From Candidatus Parcubacteria bacterium (lineage in GTDB: Bacteria; Patescibacteriota; Minisyncoccia; Phycocordibacterales; CAIZLB01): a stretch of DNA of 64,000 bases. A program made the translations under genes and the position numbers. Where the stretch lies: contig JBDKLC010000005.1 in the NCBI GenBank assembly GCA_039795775.1, positions 3,654 through 67,653 on the forward strand. Reading direction: 5' to 3'. Position 1 is the first letter of the stretch. Each line of letters begins with the position of its first letter. A model generated the notes under the pieces. That model had not been told where the DNA came from and searched no databases. It saw only the letters and a list, made by a program, of their open reading frames with translations. Below are positions 4,501-26,834 of this stretch, piece after piece.

Positions 4501-7500
4501 TGTTGGTTCGGGTGGTGGAGGATCGGGAAATGCTGCATTTACAATTGGTAACGGCTTTATCTATAACGCTACATCTACAGATAGTGTAGGTATTGGAACA
4601 TCGACACCTTTAGCTAAGCTAAATATATTGAGCACAACAGAGCAATTGAGACTCTCTTATAGTAGTGCTGTCAGCTCTAAGTTTACTGTTAATTCAACTG
4701 GTGGGCTTGATATTGTCCCTTCAGCAAATAGTGATGCTGCATTTACAGTCTCTAACGCTGCTGGAGCTGATCAGTTTAAAGTTGATACCTCAAATGGATC
4801 GGTTTATTTACCAAATTATAACATTCAGTTAGGGGATTCTAGCTTAGGAATGGCTCTTACTGTAGGACAATCTTCTTTAACAGCTAGTGATTCAGGCATT
4901 GGCTATAGCGCATGGAGTATTAACAGAGGATCTTCTGGAGGTGTGATATTTGGTGATAGTACTTACGAAGGATCTGACCTCAGTGTTAATGGATTAAGTT
5001 TTCCAAATACTTTGAAAGTTAAGGGAAGTAGTGGAAGTGTTGGTATTGGTACTTCAAGTCCAATGGCCAAGTTTTCAGTATATGGTAACGCTCTTCTTGA
5101 AGGAACTTCACGATACTTAAACTTTGGCACCGCAACAAGTTCAGCAGGCTACGGATTCAGAGACAACGCTGGAACAATTGAATTTAAGAATTTAGCTGGT
5201 TCATGGGCTGCGGTGAGTTCTGGTGGTGGAGGTGGTGGATCTGGAAATGCTGCATTTACAATCGGAAACGGCTTTATTTACAATGCAACATCAACAGACA
5301 AAGTAGGTATAGGCACAACTACTCCTGGAAGTAGACTTACTGTTGTAGGAACAACAACAACAGATTTCTTGGTAGTAGGATCAAGTACAGCATCAAGCTT
5401 TGCAAATATGCTTGCGTATTTTGCAGGTAACTCAAACAACTATGTTCAAGTAAATGCACAAAACAAGTCATCAGGAAACAATGCCTCAACAGACTTCGTA
5501 GCAACAGCTGACAACGGTGATGATACTCAGTATTACGTAGACCTCGGTATTAACAGTTCTGGATATTCAGATCCGTCATATACAATCGTAGGCGCAAATG
5601 ATGCGTACTTGTATTCACAATCAAGTGCGCTCGTTATTGGTACAGCGAGTACAACAAATCCAAATGCTGTTATTAAATTCCATACAGGGGGAACACTCGC
5701 AGCCGATGAAGCTATGCGAATTGATACTAACGGAAATGTCGGTATTGGTACAACAGCACCAGTTGAGAGATTGCAGGTTGCTGGAAACGTACTTGTAGGT
5801 GCTCGATCAAGTACAGCAAGAACATGGTCTCGAATTTCAAGTTCAACAGCCGGAACAATTGCAGAAGATGCCGGTTCATCAGGATCTATTGCATCTACAA
5901 CAGCTATGGCAGTGTATAATGGATCGCTCTACATTGGTACTGGAAAAGTTGGAGCTGCAGAAGTGTATCGATATGACGGTGGTTCAAACTGGACTCGAGT
6001 ATCAAGTAGTACACCGGGAACAATTGCAGAAGATGCTGGTTCAACTGGTTCTATTGATGCCGTACGATCTATGGCTGTATACAATGGATACCTTTTCGTA
6101 GGAACAAGTAAGCTTAACTCAGCCGAAATTTATCGATACGACGGTAATAGTACATGGACACGAGTATCAAGTAGTACACCGGGGTTTATTGGTGGCTTTG
6201 GTCTTGCTGCTACAACGACTACAGCTGTTACATCTCTCGTTGTAAACAATGGGTCATTGTACGCTGGTACTGCGACAACAGGTAAGGCTGGTATCTTCCG
6301 ATATGATATTGGTCCTTCAGCACTAGCTACTGGAGGAAATACATGGCAAGCTCTTACAGCTACGGCCGGTACTATCGGTGCGGATGCATCTGTCGATGAA
6401 GTTAGTGTGCTCGTGTCATGGAACAACGTACTCTATGCCGGTACAAAGAAGGCAAACGCTGCCGCATTGTATCGATATGACGGTGCATCTACATTCACTC
6501 GAACAAACACTGCTGCAGGTACATTCACAGGTACTGGTCTTGCTTCTATTGACGCCGTCGATGCTGCTGCGGTGTTTGATGGAAAATTGTATCTCGCTAT
6601 TTCGGATCCAAACGCTGCCCGAGTCGTTCGATTTGATACCAACCAAAACGGAGGTGTGGTGACTACATGGGCTACAACATCAAGTTCTACTTCAGGTGTT
6701 ATTGCTGAAGACGTAGGTGCTACTACAGGTATAGACCGAGTAAACTCATTTGCAATTTACAAAAATGACTTGTACGCCGGTACATATGAATCTAACGGTG
6801 CCGAACTTTACAAATTCGACGGTGGAACAACATGGTCAAAATTCTCTAGTACAACAGCAGGAACAATGGGTACGGGTACAACTGCAGCCATCGACGGTAT
6901 TGGTGCAATGCAGACATATAACGATAACTTGATCATTGCTACTACAGAACCAGGAGGAGCTGAAGTGTATACATTTAACTCAGTAGAAGGTGAATCATAT
7001 GCGTTGAAATTCAATGCGGCTTCTAATAATGCTGATGCGGAACAAAACGGTAACCTCAACACCGCATCTATTATCTTCATGGCTGAAGAACAGGCGTTCA
7101 ACAACGTCGGCAACACAAACACTGGTAAATTCTATTTCTCACACGGTATCAACACAGTGACAGGTGCGTACGACGTTGCGGAAGATTACTCAACACGAGA
7201 TGACCTCCTTGCTCCTGGAGATCTTGTAAGTATTGATACAACTGAACAGACAATGGTGAAGCGATCAGCGGGTAAGAATGATAAAAATATCATTGGTATC
7301 TATTCTGTAGAACCAGCCCTTCGACTTTCTCAGCAAGGTGCACTTATCAATGGTGCTAAGGCGGTGCCAATCGCGCTTGCCGGACGAGTGCCTGTGAAAG
7401 TATCTCTTGAAAATGGTCCAATCAAGATTGGAGATTATCTCGCAGCGGGTTCAGCTCCAGGGTCTGCTATGAAGGCTACACGACCAGGAAAAGTTATCGG

Positions 7501-8422
7501 TCGAGCACTCTCAGCATATAGTGGAGCTGAAGGAGAAGAAGCAAAAGTAATTACATTCATCGGTGTTGAAACAATTACTTGGAATGATATTTCTGAAGCT
7601 CAGGATACTGTCTCAGAGCTTGCTCAAGACGGTGAAGACCCACAGACACGAGACAGTGCACTCGAATTCCTTACATCAGTTGATGATGCTGTAGCTGACG
7701 TAGCTCTTGCCGTTATCAACAAAGTAGACAATCTCACACTTGTTGTAGCAAACAAGATTGTGGCTCTTACTGCAAGTATTCGAGACCTCTTTGTAACAAC
7801 ACTCGCGATTAACCCAGGAGGAAAGATTGTTCTTCCTACAGGAGAAAATCAAATTGCTGGAGTAGGAACAATTATCGCTGGTCAGACAGAAGTATTCGTT
7901 CCAAATACACAGATTACAAAGGATTCAGTTGTTTCTGTAACACCTACAACTGAAGTTGAAGTTCCTCTCTTTGTTTCAAAGAAAGAACCTGGAGTTGGAT
8001 TTACAATCCGAATGGTGCGACCAACAACAACAAACGTAGAGTTTGACTGGTTCTTCGTGAACACATACAAGGCAAACGGAAACATTACCACAACTATAGT
8101 TTCTGGTTCTACAAACACGTCTACTCCAACAAGTACAACACAGCAAACAACGATAACAATTGATGGTTCATCAGTTCCATCAAATCCAGCAGGTGAATCA
8201 ACAGATTCGACTTCTACTTCTGATACAACAGAGGAGGGGATAACCGCTACAACTTCAGAAAATACAGTAACATCTTCACCTGGATCTACGGTCACATCAG
8301 AAACTCCACCACCTTCGGTATCAGATGAACCACCGGTTGATACGAATTCTTCGAACGTAGAATCAGCACCCACACCAGCACCAGCTGATGCACCCACAGA
8401 TAGTGGAAGTACTACAGAATAA
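1517..8422 (+). CDS. Giant (2301 aa) repeat-rich cell-surface protein. It has an N-terminal signal/TM anchor, about 12 tail-fibre-like repeats, a Gly-rich solenoid segment, a 7-repeat putative beta-propeller and an S/T/P-rich C-terminal tail.
   Basis: Uninterrupted 6.9-kb ORF starting with ATG. The N-terminal hydrophobic stretch is IVAGLFVFAQIISPFAFLVPQVAEA. The motif [GD]N[VFL]GIG[TS][TS][TS]P-x-[AS][KR]L-x-[VI]-x-G recurs about 12 times. A Gly-rich block (GGAGGSGNGVGGGFIFQGGQGGTGGVGG...) lies at ~3240-3540. Seven ~55-aa repeats ending ...LY.GT....AE.YRYDG...W lie at ~5800-6960. The C-terminal ~110 aa are Ser/Thr/Pro/Glu-rich. Confidence 0.85.
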   Translation: MNLFYTQWNKQVATATKKIVAGLFVFAQIISPFAFLVPQVAEAAVNRQMNYQGKLMTASNVAVPDGTYNMEFKLYATAGTTTPLWTETRTSGDKVTVTNGLFSVMLGEVTALTGVDFNQTLYLGVNIGGTSSPSWDGEMSPRKKLGSVPSALVAETLDGKYAGQFLRSDAVNATNTSSTFLSLTQNGTGDIAQFIGTSSVSALIIKSNGNVGIGTTTPAGAFQVHRTSGSSDIYVTTDVNVGSANTASLQFISDNDGTPNPAGLGQFNDGSLRLSGAGNLVTPDMVITDAGFIGIGTTTPGYRLTVAGILNPTTIYASSGSAAAPSIAFEADAAHNTGLYYAGGGSFSAVAVGTRVFSVQTNGLYFNTGSVYNSTGTAAFPSVTEKNLGTTGLFWPTSGMLGISTGGVERLRVDGNGNLGIGTSSPVASLALTGTAGFSPLLIASSTNARLFEINQSGAMLVGNSAGTAGFVLQSNGATGVPIWVATSSLGISGGSGNSAFTIGNGFIFNATSTDNVGIGTTTPIATLSVKGSGSSNPFVISSSSNAQLVVVTTAGNFGIGSSSPQSKLSILGDSTSVGSASTTIAAYGGAGGSGNGVGGGFIFQGGQGGTGGVGGSFIAVGGFGGASGGGGGAISLTGGTAGTSGVGGSVTIAGGTTGGSGTGGSVYIYGSTAPGGSTGATVLGMTAASVQSGNVGVGSSSPIAKFSIMGVGGTTPLAIASSTGANLLSIDQAGRLLVGTTSSQSGILHLAAQLGNNTMLTLESPTANEASMYFKNTASSWSVGNNSAGAYVIANYPGSVGTGQMVTILPSSGNFGIGSTTPGAKLVVAGQTIGEYFTATSTTVASRFTLASTTAVTVTTDYYLSSGYIHDSGSGGVTFNYAGVQVGRFGQTGNGIGLEGTNNNASGKALVAIQSNAAGFALHSTGGINYIEKNLGLGTTTPRSTLSVFGDALLEGASRYLNFGTSSATGTSGYGFRDNAGTMEFKNLGGSWAAVGSGGGGSGNAAFTIGNGFIYNATSTDSVGIGTSTPLAKLNILSTTEQLRLSYSSAVSSKFTVNSTGGLDIVPSANSDAAFTVSNAAGADQFKVDTSNGSVYLPNYNIQLGDSSLGMALTVGQSSLTASDSGIGYSAWSINRGSSGGVIFGDSTYEGSDLSVNGLSFPNTLKVKGSSGSVGIGTSSPMAKFSVYGNALLEGTSRYLNFGTATSSAGYGFRDNAGTIEFKNLAGSWAAVSSGGGGGGSGNAAFTIGNGFIYNATSTDKVGIGTTTPGSRLTVVGTTTTDFLVVGSSTASSFANMLAYFAGNSNNYVQVNAQNKSSGNNASTDFVATADNGDDTQYYVDLGINSSGYSDPSYTIVGANDAYLYSQSSALVIGTASTTNPNAVIKFHTGGTLAADEAMRIDTNGNVGIGTTAPVERLQVAGNVLVGARSSTARTWSRISSSTAGTIAEDAGSSGSIASTTAMAVYNGSLYIGTGKVGAAEVYRYDGGSNWTRVSSSTPGTIAEDAGSTGSIDAVRSMAVYNGYLFVGTSKLNSAEIYRYDGNSTWTRVSSSTPGFIGGFGLAATTTTAVTSLVVNNGSLYAGTATTGKAGIFRYDIGPSALATGGNTWQALTATAGTIGADASVDEVSVLVSWNNVLYAGTKKANAAALYRYDGASTFTRTNTAAGTFTGTGLASIDAVDAAAVFDGKLYLAISDPNAARVVRFDTNQNGGVVTTWATTSSSTSGVIAEDVGATTGIDRVNSFAIYKNDLYAGTYESNGAELYKFDGGTTWSKFSSTTAGTMGTGTTAAIDGIGAMQTYNDNLIIATTEPGGAEVYTFNSVEGESYALKFNAASNNADAEQNGNLNTASIIFMAEEQAFNNVGNTNTGKFYFSHGINTVTGAYDVAEDYSTRDDLLAPGDLVSIDTTEQTMVKRSAGKNDKNIIGIYSVEPALRLSQQGALINGAKAVPIALAGRVPVKVSLENGPIKIGDYLAAGSAPGSAMKATRPGKVIGRALSAYSGAEGEEAKVITFIGVETITWNDISEAQDTVSELAQDGEDPQTRDSALEFLTSVDDAVADVALAVINKVDNLTLVVANKIVALTASIRDLFVTTLAINPGGKIVLPTGENQIAGVGTIIAGQTEVFVPNTQITKDSVVSVTPTTEVEVPLFVSKKEPGVGFTIRMVRPTTTNVEFDWFFVNTYKANGNITTTIVSGSTNTSTPTSTTQQTTITIDGSSVPSNPAGESTDSTSTSDTTEEGITATTSENTVTSSPGSTVTSETPPPSVSDEPPVDTNSSNVESAPTPAPADAPTDSGSTTE

Positions 8423-12996: not shown

Positions 12997-13155
12997 ATGA
13001 CAAAACGAACGCTCGGTATCATTCTTGGTCTTTGGGTAGCGGTACTCCCGTTTCTCGGATTTCCTACTGACTGGAAGAAAGGTATTATAGTTGTTTCTGG
13101 CGTTGTACTAGCAATTCTTTCTTATCTTAATGTCAAAAAGACAAACATCATTTAA
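12997..13155 (+). CDS. Small two-TM membrane protein (hypothetical)
   Basis: ATG at 12997 within the track ORF 12973..13155. It encodes 52 aa with two hydrophobic helices (LGIILGLWVAVLPFLGF; IIVVSGVVLAILSYL). It overlaps the rsmI stop and the next gene. Confidence 0.35.
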   Translation: MTKRTLGIILGLWVAVLPFLGFPTDWKKGIIVVSGVVLAILSYLNVKKTNII

Positions 13156-14404
13156 TTCGAATCTTCGAAACGCGTTCGTTAGTGTCTCTCTTCTTATTGT
13201 TGTAGTGGCCGTTGGTGTTGTATACATGTTGCATGTATTTGAGATGAAAGGTGTAAATAAGAATCTCATAGCTTCAGTATCACAGGGTGCTACAGCCACT
13301 CCAGATGTAGAAGTTCCTTTGAAGCCAATAGTTACTCATGTTGCTACACCAGATGCTGTAAAAGGTATTTATATGTCGAGTTGGGTTGGGGGAGTTCAAA
13401 AACTTCGAAACCATATTATTGAACTCGTTGATTCAAGTGAAGTGAATAGTATTGTTATTGATATTAAAGACGCAACTGGCAAAGTGGCATTTACTACTGA
13501 CGATGCATCTCTCAATGCTGTGGGTTGTATAGAAAACCGTATTCCAGACATAAAAGACTTCATCAAAGAGCTCCATGAAAAAAATATTTATGTAATTGGC
13601 CGTGTGTCTACATTTCAAGATCCGTGTTTTGTAGCAAAGCATCCCGAGCTTGCCGTTAAAACTCAAGATGGTCTGCGTGTTTGGAAAGACAGAAAAGGAA
13701 TATCTTGGATAGATGCAGGAGCAAAAGAAGCTTGGGATTACAATGTTCAGATAGCAAAAGCTTCACACGATATTGGATTTGATGAAATTAACTTTGACTA
13801 TATTCGATTCCCATCAGATGGAAATATGAAAGATATCTCTTTTCCATATAGTGGTACAAAAAGTAAGCCTTTGGTTATTAGAGAATTCTTTCAATACTTA
13901 GATGCAGAGTTACACTCACAGCCTATTATTGCTTCTACAGTCGGTACAACCACTCCTCAAAAAGCAGATCCACGAAAAGATGATAAGGGCAACCTTATAG
14001 AAAACATAACAATCTCTGCTGATTTGTTTGGTATGGTAACAACAAACAAAGATGATCTCGGTATTGGTCAGGTCCTCGAAAATGCCCTCCCATACGTAGA
14101 CTTTGTATCACCGATGGTGTATCCATCTCATTTTCCAGCTACATGGAATGGTATTCCAAATCCAGCCGCCAAACCATATGACGTGATTCATATTTCAATG
14201 AAACGTGCTGCCGAAAGAGCTACAGCAATGGGTATCGATGTACACAAGCTCCGACCGTGGCTTCAAGAGTTCAACTTAGGCGCTGTATATACTGCAGACA
14301 TGATCCGAGCACAGATGCAGGCTACCTATGATGTAGGTCTCAACAGCTGGCTTATTTGGAATCCTTCAAATAAATATAACGCTTCAGCGTATCTCCCAAA
14401 CTAG
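13130..14404 (+). CDS. Membrane-anchored putative glycoside hydrolase (GHL/DUF4015-like TIM-barrel)
   Basis: N-terminal TM helix, then VKGIYMSSWVGG...NSIVIDIKDATGKVAF...IYVIGRVSTFQD...WIDAGAKEAWDYN...DEINFDYIRFP. This resembles glycosyl-hydrolase-like families of the YngK/DUF4015 type. Confidence 0.45.
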   Translation: MSKRQTSFNSNLRNAFVSVSLLIVVVAVGVVYMLHVFEMKGVNKNLIASVSQGATATPDVEVPLKPIVTHVATPDAVKGIYMSSWVGGVQKLRNHIIELVDSSEVNSIVIDIKDATGKVAFTTDDASLNAVGCIENRIPDIKDFIKELHEKNIYVIGRVSTFQDPCFVAKHPELAVKTQDGLRVWKDRKGISWIDAGAKEAWDYNVQIAKASHDIGFDEINFDYIRFPSDGNMKDISFPYSGTKSKPLVIREFFQYLDAELHSQPIIASTVGTTTPQKADPRKDDKGNLIENITISADLFGMVTTNKDDLGIGQVLENALPYVDFVSPMVYPSHFPATWNGIPNPAAKPYDVIHISMKRAAERATAMGIDVHKLRPWLQEFNLGAVYTADMIRAQMQATYDVGLNSWLIWNPSNKYNASAYLPN

Positions 14405-14452: not shown

Positions 14453-16846
14453 ATGAATGAAGAAGAAAAAGTAACATATTTCGCCGAAACAGACGCTCGA
14501 AATCAGCGACTGAAATTCGGTATCAAATCAAAAGACCGAACACGACACATGTACGTGATTGGTAAAACGGGTATGGGTAAATCTACCTTACTCGAAAACC
14601 TTGCTGTTCAAGATATTCAGAACGGTAACGGTCTCGCATTCATTGATCCGCACGGCAAAACAGCCGATCTTCTCCTCGAATACATTCCAGAGCATCGAAT
14701 CAACGATGTAGTGTATTTTGCACCGTTCGATATGGAGCACCCTGTATCTTTCAACGTAATGGAAGACGTAGGAGCAGAACGACGTCACCTCGTAGCAAGT
14801 GGTCTCATGAGTGCATTCAAAAAGATTTGGGTGGATGCATGGTCTGCGCGAATGGAATACATTTTGGGAAATATTATGCTCGCGCTTCTTGAGTACCCTG
14901 GTTCGACACTTATTGGTGTAAACAGAATGCTTGCGGACAAAAACTTCCGAAATAAAGTTGTCGACAACATTACTGATCCTTCAGTAAAATCATTTTGGGT
15001 AGATGAATATGCCAAGTACACCGAGAAATTCGCTGCCGAAGCTGCACCTGCAATTCAAAACAAGGTAGGTCAATTCGTTGCCAATCCACTTGTGCGAAAT
15101 ATTATTGGTCAGCCAAAATCTACATTTGATATTCGAAAGATTATGGATGAGAAAAAGATTCTCATTATCAACCTTTCAAAAGGGCGAGTAGGTGAATCAA
15201 ATGCCAACCTTCTTGGAAGTATGCTTATTACAAAGATTTATCTCGCGGCTATGTCACGAGCGGATCTCAACGAAAAGCAGCTCAAAGAAGCTCCACAGTT
15301 TTATCTCTACGTGGATGAATTCCAGTCATTTGCCAATGAATCGTTTGCTGACATTTTATCAGAAGCCCGAAAGTATAAACTTAACCTTACAGTTGCTCAC
15401 CAGTATATTGAACAAATGAGTGAGGAAGTGCGTGCTGCCGTGTTCGGAAACGTGGGTACTATGGTCACATTTCGAGTGGGCGCATATGATGCTGAAGTAT
15501 TGGAAAAAGAATTCTCACCACAATTTCTTGCAACAGATATTGTGAATCTTCAGCAGTACCAGATGTATCTCAAACTCATGATTGATGGTGTAAGTTCTCA
15601 GCCATTCTCAGCTACAGGTATGTCTCCGATTGCAAAGCCTGAAAAAATGTACGTACAAGAAATTATTGATGCATCTCGAAGAAACTTTGCAAAACCTCGA
15701 TATGAAGTAGAAGATGAAATTCGACGATGGCACGAAAATCCATTTACTGAAAACCCAAGTGCCAGTGGTGCAGCAAGTAGTGGGGGAAATACGAGCGGTG
15801 GAAGTCGAGAAGGACGAGATGGAAATCGCGACAATAGAGGATCTCGAGATGGAGGTGGTCAAGGAGGAGGAGAACGACGATCATCTGACAGACAAGGTGG
15901 ATCTAGTATGCAAGGAGGACGTGACAATGCACCTCGAAGCAACAGTTCTGGTCGAGACAATAGAGACAGCAGAGACAACGGAGGTCAACCTATGATCTCT
16001 GGAGGTAGTCGACCTGAGAGGCAAGGAGAGAGACAGGATAGACCTCGAGATGTCTCACGAGATAATCGAGATCGAAATGATCGAGGCGATCGGAATGAAA
16101 GAAGTGACCGTGGAGACCGGGGTGATCGGCCAACTTCTGATCGACCAGCATCAGGTTCAAAGAAAGATAAAGAAAACCGAGAAGCTGAACTTCGAAAAGC
16201 TATTTCTTTGAGTTACCTCAAGGCAGAGCCAGATAAAAAGAACGATCAAAAGTCAGGCAAACCTGAAAACATTGCGGCACTCCGTGATGCACTTATTACT
16301 GTTATGCAAGACGCAAAAGTGGATACGTCGTCTATGGAAGCAGCTATAGAGCAAGCAACATCTGAAGACACTCCGTCTACTCAGTCGGCTGCTCCTTCTT
16401 CTGTGCAGCACAACCAGCCTCAACAGATCAAGCCAAAGACTCATATCAACTTTAAGACGGCTCAACCAGTTTCTTCGAATAGACCTCAGTCACAAGTTCA
16501 GAACCAAGAGTCAAAACAGTATCAAACACAGATGTCCCAGCCCGTAGTTCAGCCTCGAGCAGAAGAGCCAGTAGTAGAAGCATCAGCTATACATACACCT
16601 ACACAAACAACACAGACTACTCAAACACAATCAACAGAACGGGATGAACAACCGATTCAGTCTCCTCGTCCAACACAACAATCTACACCTGTAGAACCTC
16701 GATTTTCTCAGACAACACAAACACAGCCAGAACCTGAATCACCAAAAAAACAGACGTATCAAGAGTCAGCGGCGCATCAGACTCGAAGAGATCCAGCTGA
16801 AGTACCTGAAGAAGTTCTAAAAAAGATTCTTAACGTACAAGAATAA
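14453..16846 (+). CDS. Type IV secretion coupling-protein-like ATPase (TraD/TrwB/VirD4 family) with a ~370-aa low-complexity disordered C-terminal tail
   Basis: Walker A VIGKTGMGKST. FIDPHGK is like the T4CP motif IDPKGE. Walker B is YLYVDEFQSF, and ARKYKLNLTVAHQYIEQM matches the T4CP C-terminal Q motif. After ~aa 430 come RDGNRDNRGSRDGGGQGGGERRSSDRQGG...RDNRDRNDRGDRNERSDRGDRGDR, then a Q/T/P-rich stretch. No virB genes are nearby. Confidence 0.6.
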   Translation: MNEEEKVTYFAETDARNQRLKFGIKSKDRTRHMYVIGKTGMGKSTLLENLAVQDIQNGNGLAFIDPHGKTADLLLEYIPEHRINDVVYFAPFDMEHPVSFNVMEDVGAERRHLVASGLMSAFKKIWVDAWSARMEYILGNIMLALLEYPGSTLIGVNRMLADKNFRNKVVDNITDPSVKSFWVDEYAKYTEKFAAEAAPAIQNKVGQFVANPLVRNIIGQPKSTFDIRKIMDEKKILIINLSKGRVGESNANLLGSMLITKIYLAAMSRADLNEKQLKEAPQFYLYVDEFQSFANESFADILSEARKYKLNLTVAHQYIEQMSEEVRAAVFGNVGTMVTFRVGAYDAEVLEKEFSPQFLATDIVNLQQYQMYLKLMIDGVSSQPFSATGMSPIAKPEKMYVQEIIDASRRNFAKPRYEVEDEIRRWHENPFTENPSASGAASSGGNTSGGSREGRDGNRDNRGSRDGGGQGGGERRSSDRQGGSSMQGGRDNAPRSNSSGRDNRDSRDNGGQPMISGGSRPERQGERQDRPRDVSRDNRDRNDRGDRNERSDRGDRGDRPTSDRPASGSKKDKENREAELRKAISLSYLKAEPDKKNDQKSGKPENIAALRDALITVMQDAKVDTSSMEAAIEQATSEDTPSTQSAAPSSVQHNQPQQIKPKTHINFKTAQPVSSNRPQSQVQNQESKQYQTQMSQPVVQPRAEEPVVEASAIHTPTQTTQTTQTQSTERDEQPIQSPRPTQQSTPVEPRFSQTTQTQPEPESPKKQTYQESAAHQTRRDPAEVPEEVLKKILNVQE

Positions 16847-17608
16847 TATTCGTGCGTACGATCTCAAAAGACCTGGAATATATCCTGGGTAATTATTTTT
16901 GTATGTCTGTATAAGGTCAAGAGTTATCTTGTTCATTTCGAGAGCTTTTGCACTACTTGCACTACTTTTTCTAATAGTATATTCAACATCACAGCCATCA
17001 AGGTTTGCGATTTTTCCTTCGATACCCATACGGAACCAGAGATCATAATCTTCGTTGAGGTACATTGGTTTGAATCCACCCACTTTCAAATATGCCTCTT
17101 TTCGAAACATAACAGATGAAGTCGTAAAACAATTTCGTTGAAGTAAGACCGCTCGAATATCTTCATCTCGAGTGGGGTTCTTGTGTGTACGAATAGGGGA
17201 GCCGTCTTCTTTGACAATATTGATTGTGCTTGAACCAACCAAGAGATGTTCGTGATGGTCATCGAGGAAATCATGCTGCTTTTGTAGTTTTTGAGGAGAA
17301 AGCCACAAATCATCGTCGTCAATAAAGGCGATATATTTGCCCGTAGCTTCTTTGATACCAATGTCTCGGGCAACTCCGGGGCCAACGTTCTTAGGAAGAT
17401 TAACGAGTCGTAATCGTGGTTCAAATGTTTTGAGTTCGTTTACTACAGTAGCTGTGCTATCAGTACTGCCATCGTTAATGATGAGAACTTCAAGCATGTG
17501 CTGGGTATGAGTATCATTTGCAAATGACTGCTCGAATACACTTTTGATTGCTCGAGAAATAAAAGCTGCACCGTTTTTTGTGGCAATAATGACGCTGATG
17601 TTACTCAT
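16817..17608 (-). CDS. Glycosyltransferase family 2
   Basis: VIIATKNGAAFISRAI...INDGSTDSTA...AFIDDDDLW carries the GT-A DxD signature. Confidence 0.85.
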   Translation of the reverse strand: MSNISVIIATKNGAAFISRAIKSVFEQSFANDTHTQHMLEVLIINDGSTDSTATVVNELKTFEPRLRLVNLPKNVGPGVARDIGIKEATGKYIAFIDDDDLWLSPQKLQKQHDFLDDHHEHLLVGSSTINIVKEDGSPIRTHKNPTRDEDIRAVLLQRNCFTTSSVMFRKEAYLKVGGFKPMYLNEDYDLWFRMGIEGKIANLDGCDVEYTIRKSSASSAKALEMNKITLDLIQTYKNNYPGYIPGLLRSYARILFLYVKNLF

Positions 17609-17639
17609 ATATGTGTCTATTATACAATATTACGGTCTA

Positions 17640-18518
17640 TTAGATTCGTATCCAGTCTGAAGGAGTGGCATTGGTCGTGTCTACGGTGTGTGATTGAATC
17701 CACTGTTTTGGACCTACAACAACCTTTGATGCTGAAGGGTTAAGCCATGCACCCCACCAACTAAATGAACTGTTGGCGATGATATGGTGTGAACAGTTGC
17801 TCATGAGTACAAGTTCCTCGTATTCTTGAATATCAGGTGATGAGACATAATTGATGGTGATGTCTTTTGTCTGTAGATGTTGCTTGGCCCAGTTTATATC
17901 ATCTGAAAATACAAAAAGCTGAATATTTTTTGATTCTTTCTTTTGAATTTCTTCGATAGCTTTGTAGTAGTAGTCGAGTTGAAGTACGCCATGATGGGCT
18001 GCTGCATGTTTGTTTGTGACATAGTCACCTCGGCGAATATGAAGTGATACTGGTGCGAAGCCGGCTTCTTTTAGTTCTTTTATTTTGAGATACAGAGACT
18101 GTGCAGATACCCCAAGTGGTTTCTTTGGTGTGAAGTCTGATCGGATTGCATCAGCGAAGTCTTTGAAATAATCGTCAGTTTGCCACCAGCCTTCGAGATA
18201 TGAACCGTCTTTTGGTGAGAGTATCGCTGTGTTTGTTTTGTACCAGTTTGTAGCAAAGATCCTGTTTTGTATAATTCTTTTTAATTTATGAAAAGGATTT
18301 TTTGTTTTTGAAATATCAGATACTGATGCTTCAGGGAGTGTAACATTAAAATTAGTGAGTCGAAGAGGACGCACTGTATCGCGGGCGGCTGTGCCGCCCG
18401 CGATATATTCAGTGAGGTCATATGCCACATCCCACCCAGTTCGCAGAGCGATAGTTTTGCCTACTGCATACTGAAACATTTGATTGCCGAGGCCACCTTT
18501 AAGCTTGACGATTATCAT
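17640..18518 (-). CDS. Glycosyltransferase family 11 (alpha-1,2-fucosyltransferase-like)
   Basis: The N-terminal GGLGNQMFQYA motif is diagnostic of GT11/FutC-like enzymes, and the ~290-aa length fits. Confidence 0.8.
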   Translation of the reverse strand: MIIVKLKGGLGNQMFQYAVGKTIALRTGWDVAYDLTEYIAGGTAARDTVRPLRLTNFNVTLPEASVSDISKTKNPFHKLKRIIQNRIFATNWYKTNTAILSPKDGSYLEGWWQTDDYFKDFADAIRSDFTPKKPLGVSAQSLYLKIKELKEAGFAPVSLHIRRGDYVTNKHAAAHHGVLQLDYYYKAIEEIQKKESKNIQLFVFSDDINWAKQHLQTKDITINYVSSPDIQEYEELVLMSNCSHHIIANSSFSWWGAWLNPSASKVVVGPKQWIQSHTVDTTNATPSDWIRI

Positions 18519-19446
18519 GTTGAATATAGTTACTCATAAGGGTGAGATACTTTTTTGTAGCAACAGTGTCTGTAAAGTGTTCGAGGCTGTATGCTCGAGG
18601 TCGTAAACGAGAGTAGTGCTCAGTGAGCTTTTGGAGCTGAGTGCCGAAGTCAGATTCATCTTTGAAGAAATATCCGCATGAGGCCATGAGATAAGGTGCG
18701 CTAATCTTTGTATCTTTCCAATAGAAATCTTCGTGTTCCCAGAACCCACGATTCCATACGAGTGTAGGAACATCTCGGATCCATGCTTCGTGAAGGGCGA
18801 GCCCCTGACTTTCAGATTCAGAGAGATAAATCATAAATGCAGAAGATTCGAGTTTTCGATAAAAATCTTCTTGTTTAAAAAAACCATAGTGAACCACTGT
18901 GAACGGAATATCTCGGGCAGACAAGTCATTCATAACTGCTTTTACTAATTCTTCAGGAGCATTCTTTTGATAAATAAGAACTTGAAGCCGTTTTGATCGT
19001 GGAATTGGAGGTACTCCGGGATCTACTACACCAGCAGCCCATACTTTTATTTTATCTTTGAGTGAAGGAATCTGATAGATATAAAAATCACGCACCCATG
19101 GTGATGGCACAATGAGCATATCGATAAGTGGATTGTCTAAGAGCTTTTTGTGGTCGAGAGGAGAGATAGTAATAGTCGGACCAGCCACAAGTGTTCGAAA
19201 TGCTCCTTTTCGTTTGAGAGCTAACGCTTCTTTGAGTGTCTGGACGCCAGAAACCACATGCACAACATCAGATGGGCTTGTTGGATATGTATCCATTCGA
19301 AATGGAACGCCTTGTTCTTGAAGACCAACAGAAAGACTTCGAACAACTGACGCGGGGCCACGTACTTTATTTTTGATATTTCGAAAATAGACTTTCCATC
19401 GACCGAGGGAAAAGAAACTTTTTGGTGAAGTCCACAGGAGTAACAT
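18499..19446 (-). CDS. Putative GT-B fold glycosyltransferase (GT4-like)
   Basis: The C-terminal motif YLSESESQGLALHEAWIRDVPTLVW resembles the GT4 E-x7-E donor-binding motif (SxxEGFGLxxLEAMAxGxPV). It overlaps the neighbouring gene and sits in the glycan operon. Confidence 0.45.
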   Translation of the reverse strand: MLLLWTSPKSFFSLGRWKVYFRNIKNKVRGPASVVRSLSVGLQEQGVPFRMDTYPTSPSDVVHVVSGVQTLKEALALKRKGAFRTLVAGPTITISPLDHKKLLDNPLIDMLIVPSPWVRDFYIYQIPSLKDKIKVWAAGVVDPGVPPIPRSKRLQVLIYQKNAPEELVKAVMNDLSARDIPFTVVHYGFFKQEDFYRKLESSAFMIYLSESESQGLALHEAWIRDVPTLVWNRGFWEHEDFYWKDTKISAPYLMASCGYFFKDESDFGTQLQKLTEHYSRLRPRAYSLEHFTDTVATKKYLTLMSNYIQHDNRQA

Positions 19447-19460
19447 GCTAGTACTTTACC

Positions 19461-20210
19461 TTATTTTTTTACAAACCAGAATAGTCCACAACCGTATGTT
19501 TCATTGTCTGATTGAGCCTCTGTGGCGTTGGTGATAATACCACCATCTTTTTCCTGTTCTGGGACGAGTGAAAACTCACGAAGTTCGAATTCAGGGAAGT
19601 AGCTGAGGACCTGCTTATAGCTATAGATTCGGTGGGCATTAAACATGATTTTAGGCTTGCCTACAGGTGTTACGAACAAGAGGGAACCCCCTTGTCGTAC
19701 AACGCGTTTAAGCTCATTTATTGCCTTTATATCGCCTTCTGGGTCGATAGGGTCACCGTATCGGCCGAGCCCAATGTGCTCTATCGTATGCATACACGAA
19801 AGTGAGGCCAATTCACTGTCCTGGAAGGGCAGTTTCATGAGGTCGCCTTCTTTGCTTTCTAGGTCTGAAAGGTAAAGAGGAGCTGGTCGATAGTCGTAAA
19901 AATGCACAGGTACAAAGGCTGATACAATGCCACAGAAATAGAGACTTGAAGAAATATCTACATGAAACGCTGGGTTTATCTCTTTTACCTTTCGAGCTGC
20001 CCACGATGTGTGATACACATAGTGCCGGTCAAATCCTGTAAGTCGAGTCTTATCGAAGATCTGTGGAAAGACGTCACTGATGTTTGTAGAAAAACGTTGT
20101 TTCGAATCTCTGTTTCTGTACACGATATAATCGAGTGCGATAAAGAGGAATAATGGAAAATAAATAACTTTTTTTATAAATCTCAGTGTTGATCGAAGTG
20201 ATGATGGCAT
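19461..20210 (-). CDS. Putative SAM-dependent methyltransferase (DUF268-like)
   Basis: LSCMHTIEHIGLGRYGD...GGSLLFVTPVG is reminiscent of the class I MT-like DUF268 family. The assignment is weak. Confidence 0.35.
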   Translation of the reverse strand: MPSSLRSTLRFIKKVIYFPLFLFIALDYIVYRNRDSKQRFSTNISDVFPQIFDKTRLTGFDRHYVYHTSWAARKVKEINPAFHVDISSSLYFCGIVSAFVPVHFYDYRPAPLYLSDLESKEGDLMKLPFQDSELASLSCMHTIEHIGLGRYGDPIDPEGDIKAINELKRVVRQGGSLLFVTPVGKPKIMFNAHRIYSYKQVLSYFPEFELREFSLVPEQEKDGGIITNATEAQSDNETYGCGLFWFVKK

Positions 20211-20220
20211 TGTGGTGAAT

Positions 20221-21165
20221 TTAACTAATAATACGTGTGGCTTTTCGTTTAAGGGAACGGACTATATTAAATGGTTTGTTCCCCAAGTATGCCATACCTA
20301 ACTTAATATATGAAAGTGCGTTAAATGGATGTATTTTGATTGATTTTTTAAGATAATGAATTGCTTGCTTTTGTTCTTTGTTATAAAGATGAAGTCCAGC
20401 AATTGAATGGAGCACATTACTATAACTCGATGGAAATTTTAAAAAAGTATTTTCATATTTTGTAATAATGTGAGTTAAATCTCTGAGACGTTCTTTTGAT
20501 GAGGTTAATATATTTGAAGTATTGTTGTTGTGTATATGATATCGGACAAGCACGTCTGGCAAGAATATATAGGGAATATCTTGATCAATCATTCTCGTAA
20601 CTAGATCAAAATCTGCGAACATCTTAAGTTGTGTATCAAGGTATCCTACTTTTTCTAGTACGGATCTTTTAATACAAAGCATACTAAAGGTATTAAAGTA
20701 TTTCCCAGCAAGCAATTCTTTTTTTGAAAGACTACCTTTTGTTATTTTAACTTTAGCCGTCGTTATTAATCCTGTTAGATCATTAATATGTTCAACATTT
20801 GAAGCAATGAATCCTATTTGTGGATTTAAAGTAAAAAAAGTATGTAGAATTTCTAGTTTGTTTGATCTCCATTCATCGTCATGGTCGAGAAATGCGATAT
20901 AGCTACCTTTCGAAACATCAATACCAACATTTGTAGGAACTGTTGGTCCACCAGAGTTAGTCGTAGTAATTACTTTTATTCGTGAATCTTCAGAACTAAG
21001 CTCAAGTAAAATAGTTGAGGTCTCGTCCTTTGAACCATCATCAATAATAATAAGTTCAAAATCTGAGTACGTTTGTTGAAGTACGCTGGTTACAGTCCTT
21101 CTGATAAATTGTTCACTATTATAAGTAGGAATAATTACACTAAAAAAAGGATTTTTCTGTGACAT
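20221..21165 (-). CDS. Glycosyltransferase family 2
   Basis: FSVIIPTYNSEQFI...IIDDGSKDET...AFLDHDDEW. Confidence 0.85.
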   Translation of the reverse strand: MSQKNPFFSVIIPTYNSEQFIRRTVTSVLQQTYSDFELIIIDDGSKDETSTILLELSSEDSRIKVITTTNSGGPTVPTNVGIDVSKGSYIAFLDHDDEWRSNKLEILHTFFTLNPQIGFIASNVEHINDLTGLITTAKVKITKGSLSKKELLAGKYFNTFSMLCIKRSVLEKVGYLDTQLKMFADFDLVTRMIDQDIPYIFLPDVLVRYHIHNNNTSNILTSSKERLRDLTHIITKYENTFLKFPSSYSNVLHSIAGLHLYNKEQKQAIHYLKKSIKIHPFNALSYIKLGMAYLGNKPFNIVRSLKRKATRIIS

Positions 21166-21169
21166 ATCG

Positions 21170-21703
21170 TTAGTTTAGGAACGGAAGAAGTTGATCTTTT
21201 TCAGAAACAACAGGTGTAGTAACACCCCAGTCTATATCGAGTGTTGGGTCATCAAATCGAATGCCACCTTCAGCAGTTTTTGTGTATTCTTTTGTACATG
21301 CATACAAAAAGTATGCTTCATCTGAGAGCACTGAGAAGCCATGAGCAAATCCAGGTGGTATGTAGATGAAGGTACTGTCTTCACCAGTCAAATCAATTGT
21401 TTGAAACTTTTTGTACGTAGGTGAATCAGATCTCATGTCTACAAAAACATCCCGAACTTTTCCAGAAATAAGATATACAAGTTTACCTTGCGCAAATTCT
21501 CCGTGCTGATAGTGAAGCCCTCGAATCACATCTTTTTTCGAATACGACATGTTGTACTGAGGAAAACTATCAGGTAGTCCGAGTTTCTTAAATTCAGAGA
21601 TTTTTGCCATCTCCATAAAATATCCACGATCATCATGGAATTTGTCAGAAGTAACAATTAATACATCTGGTAAATCTGTCAGAGCTGTAACTTTAAAAGC
21701 CAT
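21170..21703 (-). CDS. rmlC: dTDP-4-dehydrorhamnose 3,5-epimerase-like cupin (RmlC family)
   Basis: DDRGYFME...RGLHYQ...GKLVYLISGKVRDVFVDMR...IYIPPGFAHGF matches RmlC-family signature motifs. Confidence 0.8.
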   Translation of the reverse strand: MAFKVTALTDLPDVLIVTSDKFHDDRGYFMEMAKISEFKKLGLPDSFPQYNMSYSKKDVIRGLHYQHGEFAQGKLVYLISGKVRDVFVDMRSDSPTYKKFQTIDLTGEDSTFIYIPPGFAHGFSVLSDEAYFLYACTKEYTKTAEGGIRFDDPTLDIDWGVTTPVVSEKDQLLPFLN

Positions 21704-21746
21704 AATACTAGTAGTGTATACCGAGGACTAGGCTTTTGCTAGGTCT

Positions 21747-22814
21747 TTACTTGCCGAGAGCTTTGTGGGCAAACAGGGTCTGAAGACGGTTTTTGTATAT
21801 CTCTGTAGATGCAGTATCTGGGAAGGCGACATTTGTATATGGATGCAATTCGAGGGCTTTTTCTATCTGTACCCATGTAGGTTCGATGTCATAGAGGTAT
21901 TCACTCTTGAGGAATCGGAGTGTATGAGGTTTGTGTGAAAATTTGCTGAAGAGTTTGGCAAAAAATGAAGGCTTAGTTTCGTATGTCTCAAGATTGAGGG
22001 TATCGCCATTTTGTGGCAATGGTTTAGTTGGCACCAGAGCTGGGAAGGCAATATAGAATTGCTTGTAGATATCGAGTATCAGAGCGAAATCGGTATATGA
22101 TTTCATATCTTTTGAAACAAGGTGAATGTGCTGCATCGCATAGTCGTATCGAGCGAGCCACAAGTCACGGAGCTCTTTGATCTTTGCGCCTTTTGCTTTG
22201 TGTTCTTCTACAAAGTGATAGAGATGTGCTTCACTATTCATTCGTTTTTCTACAAGCTTTTCAGGATTCATTGAAAGGCAATATTCTTTGAATAAAGCAG
22301 GCTTCATGGCAAAGAGCATGTCATTGTAGTTACCTGGTGCAGCGTGGAGCATTGTGCCATCTGGCAAGATGTAGTCGGGGTTACTTATTACAATATCATC
22401 AGTAGAGTTTGTGAGGAGTTGTGTGAAGTCCGGAAGCTTGTAGAGGATGTGTCGAGATGTGTAATACACTACCCAGTCGTATTGTTTGAGTTGATCACCG
22501 AGTCGGTCGAGTACTGCCATGCACATTTGGAATTCTCCAGCTCCTTTGTTTTTACTACCGAGTGCATTGTTGTTGATGAGAAATTTATATTTCACATCGT
22601 TAGATCCAACGAGTGTTCTGCTGTGATTGTTTTCAAATGACGTGATACTTTCTGTAGTATTTTCTACAACGCAAATATCAGCAACACCTTTTGTTTGTTG
22701 AATGAGATTCCAGAGAGCTACAGCATAGAGTTCTTGTCTGTTATATCTCTGTCGAAATGATGTGTTTGCAGGTTGGTAAGAGGAAAGACAAACAAACAAA
22801 ATTTTATTATTCAT
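21747..22814 (-). CDS. Hypothetical protein in glycan operon (possible glycosyltransferase)
   Basis: 355-aa ORF with no recognisable motif. It is in an operon with glycosyltransferases and the DegT gene. Confidence 0.3.
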   Translation of the reverse strand: MNNKILFVCLSSYQPANTSFRQRYNRQELYAVALWNLIQQTKGVADICVVENTTESITSFENNHSRTLVGSNDVKYKFLINNNALGSKNKGAGEFQMCMAVLDRLGDQLKQYDWVVYYTSRHILYKLPDFTQLLTNSTDDIVISNPDYILPDGTMLHAAPGNYNDMLFAMKPALFKEYCLSMNPEKLVEKRMNSEAHLYHFVEEHKAKGAKIKELRDLWLARYDYAMQHIHLVSKDMKSYTDFALILDIYKQFYIAFPALVPTKPLPQNGDTLNLETYETKPSFFAKLFSKFSHKPHTLRFLKSEYLYDIEPTWVQIEKALELHPYTNVAFPDTASTEIYKNRLQTLFAHKALGK

Positions 22815-22850
22815 GATGATCCCTGACCGGTAATTTGGAGGCGAGTACGA

Positions 22851-23996
22851 TTACGCCTTAAAGTTTTTAACAACCTTAATTATATACGCAACCTCTTTTG
22901 GAGTTAAGCCTGGGAACATAGGAAGGAGAGTGATCTTTTTCCATACAGTGTCAGCTACAGGAAGCTTTCTCTTTTTCATGTACGGCTGGTACATCTTGTA
23001 GAGGTGGTTTGGAATGTAGTGCATGCCAGCGCCAACGCCATTTTCCATCAAATATGCGATGAATTTATCTCGAATAGAAGCATCAACTTTTACCATGAAG
23101 TTGTGAGTAGCATTCCATGCGTATGATTTTTCTACTGGAAGCTCAAGCCATGGAAGGTCTGCGAATGCTTTTTTGTATTGATCGGCGATTGCTCGTCGTC
23201 GTTCGAGGTGAGCAGGAAGCTTTTCGAGCTGAACAAGACCGAGACATGCGTTGATGTCATTCATGTGATATTTGTATCCAAGTTCTTCAACTTCATAGTA
23301 CCAGTGATATCCCTTGTCTGTGATAGTTCGATCGAATGTACTTTTGTTGATACCTAGCCATCGTCGCTTTCGAAGAATCTCATCCCATTTTTTATTGTTG
23401 AATGTGAGTGCACCACCGTCACCTGTTGCAAGGTTTTTTACAGCGTGGAAACTGAAACTTGTGATGTCAGCAACAGAACCAACAGGTTTGCCTTTGTATT
23501 TTGAACCGCATGAATGTGCAGCATCTTCAAGTACAAAAAGTTTATGTTTTTTTGCAATTTTCTTAATCTTGTCTATGTCACAAGGATGACCACCGTAGTC
23601 TACGCAAATAATACCTGCTGTCTTTGGAGTGATCAGTGCTTCAATTTTGTCAGCGTCGATATTGAGAGTGTCTGGTTCAATATCACAGAATACTGGAATA
23701 CCACCTTCGTATAAGATAGCGTGGTTTGTAGAAACGAATGTCATCGGAGTTGTGATGACTTCTTTGCCCTTAATATTAAAAAGTGAGAGAGCAAGGTGAA
23801 GAGCTGATGTTGCTGAGTTGAGAGCAACTGCATGCGGAGCACCCACAAACGCACCGAATTTGTCTTCAAATTCTTTGGTTTTTGGCCCAAGTCCAATCCA
23901 GCCTTTTTTAAAGGATTCTTTTAATGAGTTGAGTTCTCGACTGTCATATGACGGTCGGAAAAGTGGAATCATATTCATATGGGGACATAGTAGCAT
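22851..23996 (-). CDS. DegT/DnrJ/EryC1/StrS-family PLP-dependent sugar aminotransferase
   Basis: NSATSALHLAL...VITTPMTF...VDYGGHPCD...LEDAAHS...SFHAVKNL, where the Lys in HAVK is the PLP lysine. The true start is probably the internal Met (MIPLFRP). Confidence 0.85.
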   Translation of the reverse strand: MLLCPHMNMIPLFRPSYDSRELNSLKESFKKGWIGLGPKTKEFEDKFGAFVGAPHAVALNSATSALHLALSLFNIKGKEVITTPMTFVSTNHAILYEGGIPVFCDIEPDTLNIDADKIEALITPKTAGIICVDYGGHPCDIDKIKKIAKKHKLFVLEDAAHSCGSKYKGKPVGSVADITSFSFHAVKNLATGDGGALTFNNKKWDEILRKRRWLGINKSTFDRTITDKGYHWYYEVEELGYKYHMNDINACLGLVQLEKLPAHLERRRAIADQYKKAFADLPWLELPVEKSYAWNATHNFMVKVDASIRDKFIAYLMENGVGAGMHYIPNHLYKMYQPYMKKRKLPVADTVWKKITLLPMFPGLTPKEVAYIIKVVKNFKA

Positions 23997-24216
23997 GCTT
24001 TATAGGTTTTAAAAATATGGTGATTTTAAGAAAGAATGGGCATATAATTAGGTGTATATTTTATGCAAAAACCCTTCTTTTCGACATTTATACTGAGGGA
24101 ACCAGAGGGTAAACTTCTTTTGCAGTTACGTGACGATGGAAATAGTGACTATTGATGAAATAAAAAAATTAGATCTTGCGTTTGGTCACAATGATCTAAT
24201 TTTAAAAATTGAGGAT

Positions 24217-25899: not shown

Positions 25900-25954
25900 G
25901 GAATTGGTGGATTTGAAATAATTGTATGGAGTAATGATAGCAAAACTTTTAGTC

Positions 25955-26832: not shown

Positions 26833-26834
26833 GA

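Follow-up and report, generated by a model that had tools for sequence, protein, structure and literature searches.

We report on a gene located at positions 14453..16846 (plus strand) of a 64,000-nucleotide stretch of contig JBDKLC010000005.1 from a Candidatus Parcubacteria bacterium (assembly GCA_039795775.1); the whole of this stretch is referred to as the window. The gene, present in the list of open reading frames (ORFs) with an ATG start and 797 codons plus stop, encodes a T4CP-type ATPase (T4CP, type IV coupling protein) with a long C-terminal extension. As judged by sequence comparison, the form of this ATPase found in Paceibacteria is headless, i.e. it is without the transmembrane (TM) and DUF8128 module carried by relatives from other classes of the Candidate Phyla Radiation (CPR). 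The same ORF has been called as a gene on its source, a 186.8-kb metagenome contig of the Joint Genome Institute (JGI; 3300043397 Ga0451679_0000002), and the coordinates, strand and motifs given for it in a preliminary description, which was made from the letters of the window, are exact in the translation. All features of the gene referred to below are on the plus strand.

The ATPase core (aa 1-430; 14453..15742) consists of a P-loop nucleotide-binding domain (NBD) with an inserted all-helical domain, as seen from the match to the Pfam family PF10412 (residues 26-342), AlphaFold2 models and Foldseek, and the column consensus of the core in an alignment of 121 sequences is 0.64-0.95. The Walker A motif or P-loop, GKTGMGKST, was read directly at aa 37-45 (14561..14587), where G37, K38, T39, G40, G42, K43 and S44 are invariant in the homologue alignment. 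It is followed by FIDPHGK at aa 63-69, within which DPHG (aa 65-68; 14645..14656) is invariant in both homologue alignments and pairs with DPNG of TrwB in a phmmer alignment to 1e9r. The all-alpha insertion (aa ~108-232; 14774..15148) comprises eight helices according to DSSP assignment of the AlphaFold2 models (predicted local distance difference test, pLDDT, 82-97), resembles the all-alpha domain (AAD) of T4CPs, and is flanked by strands 86-89 and 236-240, which places it between Walker A and Walker B. The latter, YVDEFQ (aa 286-291; 15308..15325; YVDEFQSF spans aa 286-293), was likewise read directly and pairs with Walker B of TrwB, with V287, D288, E289, F290 and Q291 invariant in the homologue alignment, and the AHQ motif (aa 315-317; 15395..15403), with A315, H316 and Q317 all invariant, follows strand 310-316. 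As a separate observation, the segment at aa 332-389 (15446..15619) has a column consensus of about 0.87 yet a pLDDT <50 in both AlphaFold models, and may fold only in an oligomer or on partner binding.

The claim in the preliminary description that the first ~430 residues are T4CP-like was borne out by profile, fold and homology comparisons. Specifically, TrwB_AAD_bind (PF10412) matched contiguously over residues 26-342 with 30.4 bits (gathering score 20.5), while TraG-D_C reached 20.5 bits, just below its threshold of 22; of the profiles that had been suggested for the search, the first is thus passed by the window protein, and TraG-D_C and T4SS-DNA_transf by more distant members of the family, which exceed both thresholds. 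DUF87/HerA was marginally above threshold (25.0 vs 23.2 bits), and the top NCBIfam matches were all of the TraD/VirD4 type. The family profile, when run against the sequences of the PDB, gave TrwB as its sole match (E about 9e-4). The core-only AlphaFold2 model (predicted TM-score 0.81) shows a predicted RecA-like domain with an eight-helix insertion, i.e. the NBD plus AAD layout of T4CPs. In Foldseek searches with this model T4CPs rank first (TM-scores 0.48-0.55), among them DotL (E=1e-9, TM-score 0.54), Cag-beta (0.55) and TrwB (about 0.5), followed by HerA (about 0.43, E about 6e-9), with VirB4 lower still; the order was unchanged with the full-length model. FtsK was not found among the top 50 Foldseek matches of the core model, and the Pfam scan of the protein gave no match to FtsK_SpoIIIE (PF01580) at E<=1. 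HerA is, as far as the sequence tells, a superfamily-level match only, and T4CP profiles and folds lead over HerA and FtsK, placement in which, with no T4CP relationship, would have spoken against the preliminary description. Together with the homology to a Bacillus plasmid protein (see below), these data leave little doubt that the protein is a T4CP derivative. No TM segment was detected in it: the maximum 19-residue Kyte-Doolittle mean is 1.24, and only 36 residues precede Walker A.

The C-terminal tail is organised into two linkers and two conserved islands. Linker 1 (aa 436-569; 15758..16159), predicted to be disordered (pLDDT <50), is an Arg/Gly/Ser/Asp-rich, Lys-free polyampholyte with R 21%, G 21%, S 16%, D 13% and K 0%; for comparison, the means over the remaining 45 ORFs in the window are 3.7% for R and 6.5% for K, which corresponds to a 5.7-fold enrichment of Arg over the window background. 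Its GC content is 0.52 vs 0.41 in the core. The charged fraction is 0.38, the net charge is +5 over 134 residues, and the charges alternate almost perfectly, as indicated by a kappa of 0.019 (0.183 for shuffles). These values predict an expanded, non-collapsing chain and not a polycationic nucleic-acid clamp; the linker is thus no strongly cationic nucleic-acid-binding tail, and the likeness to eukaryotic RS/RD tails proposed at first is overstated. The richness in Arg-containing dipeptides is real (RD x10, DR x9, NR x5, SR x5, RG x4 in the tail), but the window copy is near the extreme of an Arg/Gly/Ser-rich linker that occurs throughout the family: across 85 homologues the medians for linker 1 are R 12%, G 14%, S 13% and K 2.6%, the net charge per residue has a median of +0.05 and a minimum of -0.01, and the window linker ranks 84 of 85 in R+D. 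The preference for Arg over Lys, against the composition of the genome, suggests selection for Arg-specific contacts.

Motif A (aa 570-622; 16160..16318) is a conservation island predicted to form a helix-loop-helix (helices 570-589 and 604-622) with the pattern RExELRKAISLSYLK...KNDQK..KPENxAALRDALxxVM, its consensus being written ...ELRKAISLSYLK...KPENxAALRDAL..., and its hidden Markov model (HMM) matches 116/119 close homologues and 40/77 loci from the GTDB genomes. It is followed by linker 2 (aa 623-780; 16319..16792), a poorly conserved, predicted disordered Gln/Thr/Ser/Pro-rich segment (Q 19%, T 14%, S 12%, P 11%), and in this respect the Gln/Thr/Pro-rich segment noted earlier after the RD-rich part is confirmed. 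The extreme C-terminus is formed by motif C (aa 781-797; 16793..16843), a predicted acidic amphipathic helix (EVPEEVLKKIL; helix 786-792), for which the HMM gave matches in 103/119 close homologues and in 47/77 of the GTDB loci, almost without exception at the terminal end of the protein. The disorder prediction agrees with this division, as pLDDT is <50 across the tail apart from the motif A and motif C helices. The tail had been described as extreme low-complexity sequence; the bias in composition stands, but its uniformity does not, since conservation and predicted helices mark residues ~570-622 and 781-797.

Close homologues all have tails, of 138-373 aa, and the comparison among them supports an Arg/Gly/Ser-rich composition throughout the family with two conserved islands, which again argues against uniform low complexity. 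The nearest relative (P0001; 91% core identity), which comes from an independent assembly, has a collinear tail that shares both islands. Motifs A and C are nearly identical in the two proteins while the linkers have diverged and are gapped, linker 1 showing 36% identity; near-constant motifs amid diverged linkers in a pair with 91% core identity are thus the signature of short linear motifs in a fast-evolving spacer. Tandem Repeats Finder detected one tandem repeat only in the tail DNA (9-bp x 3.3). An assembly artefact such as collapsed reads, which the preliminary description had considered, is ruled out by the lack of a tandem array and the collinear tail of P0001, in keeping with the tails of the other homologues.

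A word-indexed search for homologues returned at least 8000 matches, the best 120 of which show 77-91% core identity, have lengths of 563-769 aa and carry source names of Patescibacteria, Parcubacteria or Paceibacteria. Exhaustive searching of 50%-identity representatives brought up 22,661 clusters at a cut-off of E<=1e-3; at E<=1e-30 the number was 6,196. In existing annotation, homologues go by the name 'type IV secretion system DNA-binding domain-containing protein'. As far down as about 53% identity, relatives resemble the window protein in having no N-terminal extension and a long tail, and from about 56% identity down many bear an N-terminal extension of ~400 aa that consists of a hydrophobic segment and DUF8128. 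These head-bearing forms come from Saccharimonadia, Microgenomates, Berkelbacteria and Dojkabacteria, and their genes are also found among housekeeping genes (topA, an ftsW/murG/PBP block, ftsH, murJ, lepA) without neighbouring genes for a type IV secretion system (T4SS). No DUF8128 head module was found in the window protein, in the ORFs of the window or in 83 related loci, and hence a split gene, with the TM and DUF8128 head encoded separately nearby, was rejected.

The strongest argument for T4CP ancestry is provided by relatives. A tblastn search of plasmids gave 743 records with relatives, and on the B. subtilis plasmid NZ_OX419581.1 a 913-aa relative is encoded directly upstream of a replication-relaxation gene and TcpD/TcpE-family and VirB4-like genes, i.e. 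it occupies the T4CP position of a monoderm conjugation locus. This protein aligns with a head-bearing CPR form over 746 columns (E=4e-42), and its N-terminus alone matches the CPR head-module HMM (E=1.6e-26), with E>1 for all control ORFs. Since the plasmid N-terminus matches the head module by itself, head plus ATPase is the ancestral conjugative architecture. We had at one stage referred to this plasmid as 'pLS20-like', a label that is withdrawn: the NZ_OX419581.1 locus is a Tcp-type cluster, and according to the pLS20 papers the T4CP of pLS20 (gene 48) does not adjoin its relaxase (gene 58). In a neighbour-joining tree rooted with the plasmid protein and head-bearing forms (a rough tree, computed without support values), the window protein falls inside an all-headless clade of 40, which suggests that the head was lost in its lineage.

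The headless and head-bearing forms share cores (46-56% identical to the window protein for CPR forms, about 29% for the Bacillus plasmid protein), they align over their full length, low-complexity tails are common among the head-bearing forms too, and those from the CPR are orphans as well. They differ in the ~350-aa DUF8128 module, in the N-terminal hydrophobic segment (present in the CPR forms only, not in the plasmid protein) and in motifs A and C, which the HMMs detected in 0/47 head-bearing relatives, whose tails have a median length of 100 aa. The Bacillus plasmid member differs further by its acidic tail and by residing in a real conjugation locus.

Several side observations concern these relatives. 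The best plasmid match is a 395-aa homologue without head and tail on a plasmid of the alphaproteobacterium Sulfitobacter mediterraneus (NZ_CP081110.1; L092 8980..10167), which has genes for recombinases and transposases around it; its identity to the window core is 42% as compared with 27-34% for the other plasmid matches listed, and this difference hints at cross-phylum transfer. In two long-read assemblies of Saccharimonadia type (L086 10001..12636 and L087 10001..12587) the head-bearing homologue appears as two adjacent ORFs (DUF8128 plus DUF87, then TraG-D_C), owing either to an erroneous frameshift or to a real division of the gene. In three proteins of ~1,200 aa (P0251, P0253 and P0255) a head-like N-terminus is followed by two ATPase cores in tandem; in the rough tree, whose sampling did not include P0251, the branches of P0253 and P0255 leave close to the root, and for P0251, the one whose sequence was inspected, an Ala/Arg/Pro-rich composition suggests a high-GC, non-CPR organism. 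Moreover, the label 'uncultured Candidatus Saccharibacteria bacterium' is attached to many metagenome-assembled genomes that have the headless gene in its usual synteny, and Flavobacteriaceae to one; automatic mislabelling is the probable cause, as the proteins labelled Saccharimonadia bear the head.

The number of GTDB species genomes with a relative of the gene is at least 592. When the window was compared pair by pair with related loci, the median identity of the ATPase core was 73.9% (n=77), while the corresponding medians are 60.8% for pyruvate kinase, 63.2% for RadC, 58.3% for RsmI, 45.9% for DUF4015 and 35-40% for glycosyltransferases, and the ATPase core is the more conserved protein in every pair, although its figure is biased upward as the loci were chosen by similarity to the ATPase protein. 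Such constraint is unusual, because the review literature calls T4CPs unexpectedly divergent, and the level of conservation therefore argues for an important cellular role. We take the gene to be a vertically inherited chromosomal core gene.

With respect to the neighbourhood, the ATPase gene is the last in a co-directional block with the order pyruvate kinase, 6PGL-like, RadC, RsmI, sTM, DUF4015 and ATPase, and it converges on a glycosyltransferase cluster. This block order recurs on contigs of 772 kb and 720 kb and across the GTDB loci. Scans for promoters and terminators were at chance level, and the tight spacing is the only operon evidence. The genes in the window and the 10 kb upstream of it include those for central carbon metabolism, translation, Sec and surface polysaccharides; none on these about 74 kb has a Pfam record of a T4SS, Tra or relaxase family, so the description of the gene as an orphan with no adjacent VirB or Tra genes is upheld over this distance, and no T4SS or relaxase genes were found within ±10 kb of the gene on two related contigs (L002 and L003). 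A tblastn search revealed no paralogue of the ATPase in the window.

The two genes immediately upstream in the block both encode membrane proteins. The first, denoted sTM (12998..13155, plus strand), lies between rsmI and the DUF4015 gene and encodes a 52-aa protein with two TM segments (MTKRT...; LPFLGFPxxWK motif) and the consensus MSKRSLIILLGILVALLPFLGFPSSWK..., which is detectable in more than 50 related genomes; its ORF has no gene call on the JGI contig, and it shows a weak, sub-threshold match to the SPW repeat domain. For loci with at least 2.5 kb of upstream flank, sTM is found upstream on the same strand in 51/65 (78%), with a median distance to the ATPase gene of 1,571 nt, usually with the DUF4015 gene in between, and it is directly adjacent (<100 nt) in 4 loci. 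It was not found in 14/65 loci, where other neighbours are present, and we therefore rejected it as an obligate neighbour; a fission product of the TM segment of the head was also rejected, as there is no similarity (best E=0.086). The second gene (13130..14404, plus strand) encodes a membrane-anchored, glycoside-hydrolase-like DUF4015 protein (PF13200, 311.8 bits) and is positioned between sTM and the ATPase gene in most loci. The JGI call starts at 13226 (392 aa), thereby dropping the N-terminal TM anchor that the orthologues keep, and the gene probably begins at 13130 in reality, with a longer ORF whose first 26 nt are shared with the end of sTM. A functional link of the ATPase with sTM or DUF4015 is putative, its basis being synteny, and essentially no literature was found on DUF4015 or DUF8128.

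How the window protein relates to characterised systems is best seen by comparison with VirD4/TrwB-type T4CPs (TrwB of R388, PDB 1e9r/1gki; DotL, 6sz9; Cag-beta, 8dol). It shares with them the motif order Walker A, DPxG and Walker B, the all-helical domain between Walker A and B, and they are its top matches by profile and by fold; C-terminal extensions that vary are known in T4CPs as well, and a review defines T4CPs by the NBD and recognises variable or acidic C-terminal domains and TMD-less T4CPs (without a transmembrane domain, TMD) as subtypes. On the other hand, the window protein is only about 16-18% identical to them and lacks the N-terminal TMD, its gene is apart from T4SS and relaxase genes, at a single chromosomal locus and with about 74% identity across species, and its tail is Arg/Gly/Ser- and Gln/Thr/Pro-rich instead of Glu/Asp-rich. 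TraJ of pIP501 is likewise without a TMD, and the small membrane protein TraI has been postulated as its membrane partner (review); here, the small membrane gene sTM is nearby, but the ATPase gene is outside any conjugation operon and sTM is usually separated from it by the DUF4015 gene. Given the 14 loci without sTM and its lack of relation to the TM segment of the head, sTM as a membrane partner by analogy with TraI and TraJ is a weak hypothesis only. HerA shares the ASCE/FtsK-HerA superfamily fold, and differs in its HAS-barrel, for which the 36 residues before Walker A leave no counterpart in the window protein, in its lower TM-score (about 0.43 vs about 0.5) and in its NurA, Sir2 or DUF4297 partners, none of which is encoded nearby. 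FtsK/SpoIIIE differs in that the window protein has no PF01580 match, no gamma domain and a disordered C-terminus.

An architecture of core, linker and C-terminal peptide is known from FtsZ (C-terminal linker and peptide), from the tail of SSB and from the TraD tail that binds TraM. The window protein appears analogous in having a folded NTPase core, a long linker whose composition is conserved while its sequence is not and whose length varies, and a short conserved C-terminal helix; there is no homology, and it has an additional internal helix-loop-helix.

The published background on T4SSs in Patescibacteria is provided largely by a 2025 survey (PMC12102498), according to which 5,713 T4CP homologues are present in 2,918 Patescibacteria genomes (96%) and VirB4 in 2,417/3,035 (80%), T4CP homologues are linked to virB4 in only 148/5,713 cases, and relaxases are nearly absent. 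The situation of a standalone T4CP, raised in the preliminary description, is thus already documented for this phylum, and orphan T4CP homologues are as a class not new (PMC12102498). The Patescibacteria T4SS was the first to be shown essential for growth. No other papers on CPR coupling proteins were found in the searchable literature. New relative to that literature are the headless architecture of the Paceibacteria clade and its relation to the DUF8128-headed forms and the plasmid T4CP, the exceptional conservation of the core, and the organised tail with its two motifs; the association with the upstream sTM and DUF4015 genes was likewise not found there.

On the basis of these data we suggest that the product of the gene is a soluble ATPase of T4CP type which uses the tethered motifs of its tail for docking to partners and serves a T4SS, and we put the probability of this explanation as a whole at about 0.5. 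The protein would descend from monoderm conjugative T4CPs, having kept the ATPase core and lost the membrane anchor and the DUF8128 head, and by homology with TrwB, DotL and HerA it would be expected to assemble into a ring-shaped ATPase. The extension of 370 aa would act as a flexible tether in which the two disordered linkers present the helical motifs A and C, the Arg-rich linker being mainly an extended spacer with at most weak, non-specific affinity for nucleic acids. Motifs A and C would be docking sites for partner proteins, like the TraD tail for TraM and the DotL tail for its adaptors, and would recruit the soluble ATPase to a membrane-bound partner, most likely the chromosomal VirB4/VirB6-type, MPF-FATA-like T4SS for which most Patescibacteria have genes at another site, where the ATPase could be both substrate receptor and energiser. 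We consider the tethered-docking tail somewhat probable, and that the ATPase works with a T4SS rather than in an exapted role is rated slightly below an even chance, because the t4cp homologue of Candidatus Southlakia epibionticum is dispensable, T4CP homologues are wider in distribution than VirB4, and the TMD is missing.

Several points weigh against this explanation. Conservation above that of glycolytic enzymes is atypical for T4CPs, the TMD that is essential in classical T4CPs is absent, and neither T4SS genes nor a relaxase were found over about 74 kb. The NCBIfam T4CP equivalog and subfamily cut-offs are all missed widely (53.9 vs 366; 43.2 vs 250), and the fold E-values of HerA are near those of T4CPs. 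Once core identity falls below about 70%, most relatives show no detectable motif A or C, and the docking role of the two motifs is one that we infer entirely. With respect to published data, T4CP homologues are more widespread than VirB4 (96% vs 80% of genomes), and in Southlakia the T4SS is essential and the unlinked t4cp homologue is not (PMC12102498), while Wang et al. saw no coupling protein in the Southlakia T4SS cluster. Southlakia is of a different class, and its t4cp homologue is probably head-bearing.

A first alternative is that the protein is an exapted housekeeping translocase, engaged in DNA translocation or segregation at division, or in repair or recombination, like the soluble FtsK-like SftA or HerA, in which case partners in the divisome or nucleoid would be reached through the motifs of the tail. 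We regard this as unlikely, albeit as the most credible of the alternatives. It would fit a soluble protein without TM segments whose core is more conserved than pyruvate kinase, RsmI and RadC in the same genomes, the housekeeping context of the gene both in Paceibacteria and around head-bearing forms (topA, ftsW/murG/PBP block, ftsH, murJ), and the DUF87/HerA score marginally above the Pfam threshold. The wider occurrence of T4CP homologues as compared with VirB4 and the dispensability of the Southlakia homologue for T4SS-dependent growth point in the same direction, and the survey authors themselves raised exaptation of T4CP homologues (PMC12102498). Yet a non-essential homologue in Southlakia is unexpected if the function were essential housekeeping, the protein has neither FtsK-specific features (PF01580, gamma domain, FtsK among the top 50 folds) nor HerA-specific ones (room for a HAS-barrel, a NurA or Sir2 partner), and its neighbours give no coherent functional signal.

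A nucleic-acid import motor is an improbable reading. According to this, host RNA or DNA would be drawn through a T4SS or pilus conduit, or ComEC, into a nucleotide-auxotrophic cell, with the Arg-rich linker capturing the polyanion. T4CPs are nucleic-acid-dependent motors (review; established knowledge), Arg is increased 5.7-fold and Lys excluded in linker 1, a tendency seen throughout the family (median R 12%, K 2.6%), and relaxases are nearly absent from the phylum, from which it follows that the substrate is not classical conjugative DNA. Moreover, a 2026 preprint describes a cultivated patescibacterium that feeds on RNA of its host and may have T4SS pili at the contact zone, but it makes no mention of the ATPase protein. 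The net charge of only +5/134 residues and the kappa of 0.019 speak for an expanded spacer rather than a polycation, the linker sequence is not conserved, the link between T4CPs and import is without known experimental precedent, and deletion of comEC left the viability of Southlakia unchanged. The more specific variant, with a headless T4CP docked by its tail motifs to a T4SS or pilus and reeling in host RNA or DNA, i.e. a coupling protein 'in reverse' serving as a feeding device, is a shade more improbable still.

It is very improbable that the protein is a HerA/mad8-like component of anti-phage defence: PADLOC gave 53 bits for mad8 and 19-36 bits for HerA models, and HerA-Sir2 and HerA-DUF4297 complexes are among the fold matches, but T4CP profiles score better at the family level, no Sir2, DUF4297, nuclease or methylase effector is encoded in the conserved neighbourhood, and a near-universal, syntenic and hyper-conserved distribution is the opposite of patchy defence islands. 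A defence system was hence rejected, as the PADLOC matches are weak and without partner genes.

The least probable explanation, to which we give almost no weight, is an artefact, a pseudogene or a T4CP of a mobile element (plasmid, integrative and conjugative element, or phage) stranded on the contig; T4CPs are usually borne by mobile elements, misassembly can create low-complexity tails and relatives occur on four IMG/VR contigs, but the 797-codon frame is intact, an independent assembly gives a collinear tail, the tail DNA has no tandem repeat array, the GC content is not anomalous, and chromosomal synteny is kept on contigs of 187-772 kb. Origin from a phage or other mobile element was rejected with relatives on only 4 of 2.9 million viral contigs in IMG/VR: chromosomal synteny is not present around these four, and the closest, the one inspected in detail, is a host flank beside a recombinase.

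Patescibacteria, a host-dependent group, account for a large share of bacterial diversity. For their largest class, Paceibacteria, the question of what the unlinked T4CP homologues do is narrowed to an ATPase that is soluble, headless and more strongly constrained than enzymes of central glycolysis. Motifs A and C can be used as baits for partners, and their binders would show whether orphan T4CPs still serve a T4SS or exaptation has taken place. Among bacterial proteins it also illustrates clearly how short motifs stay conserved in a fast-evolving disordered region that is constrained in composition.

Two further features of the surroundings were noted. At their 3' ends the ATPase gene and the convergent GT2 glycosyltransferase gene (16817..17608, minus strand) share 30 nt (16817..16846), and this GT2 gene is the first of a large surface-polysaccharide cluster (16817..35847) that encodes GT2, GT11, DUF268, a dTDP-sugar isomerase, a DegT aminotransferase, UbiA, a Wzx-like flippase and a Wzy_C/TPR protein; the content of the cluster varies among related contigs, and its position beside the ATPase gene is kept. 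Between SecDF/DUF7847 and pyruvate kinase there is a block in which five unannotated ORFs (74-513 aa) precede a giant ORF of 2,301 aa (1517..8422, plus strand; also L094 5446..10001) with no Pfam match and with Gly-rich and Thr/Ser-rich low-complexity stretches. As the related contigs L002 and L003 hold only about 2.5-3 kb at this position, the block looks like a lineage-specific insertion of surface-protein genes.

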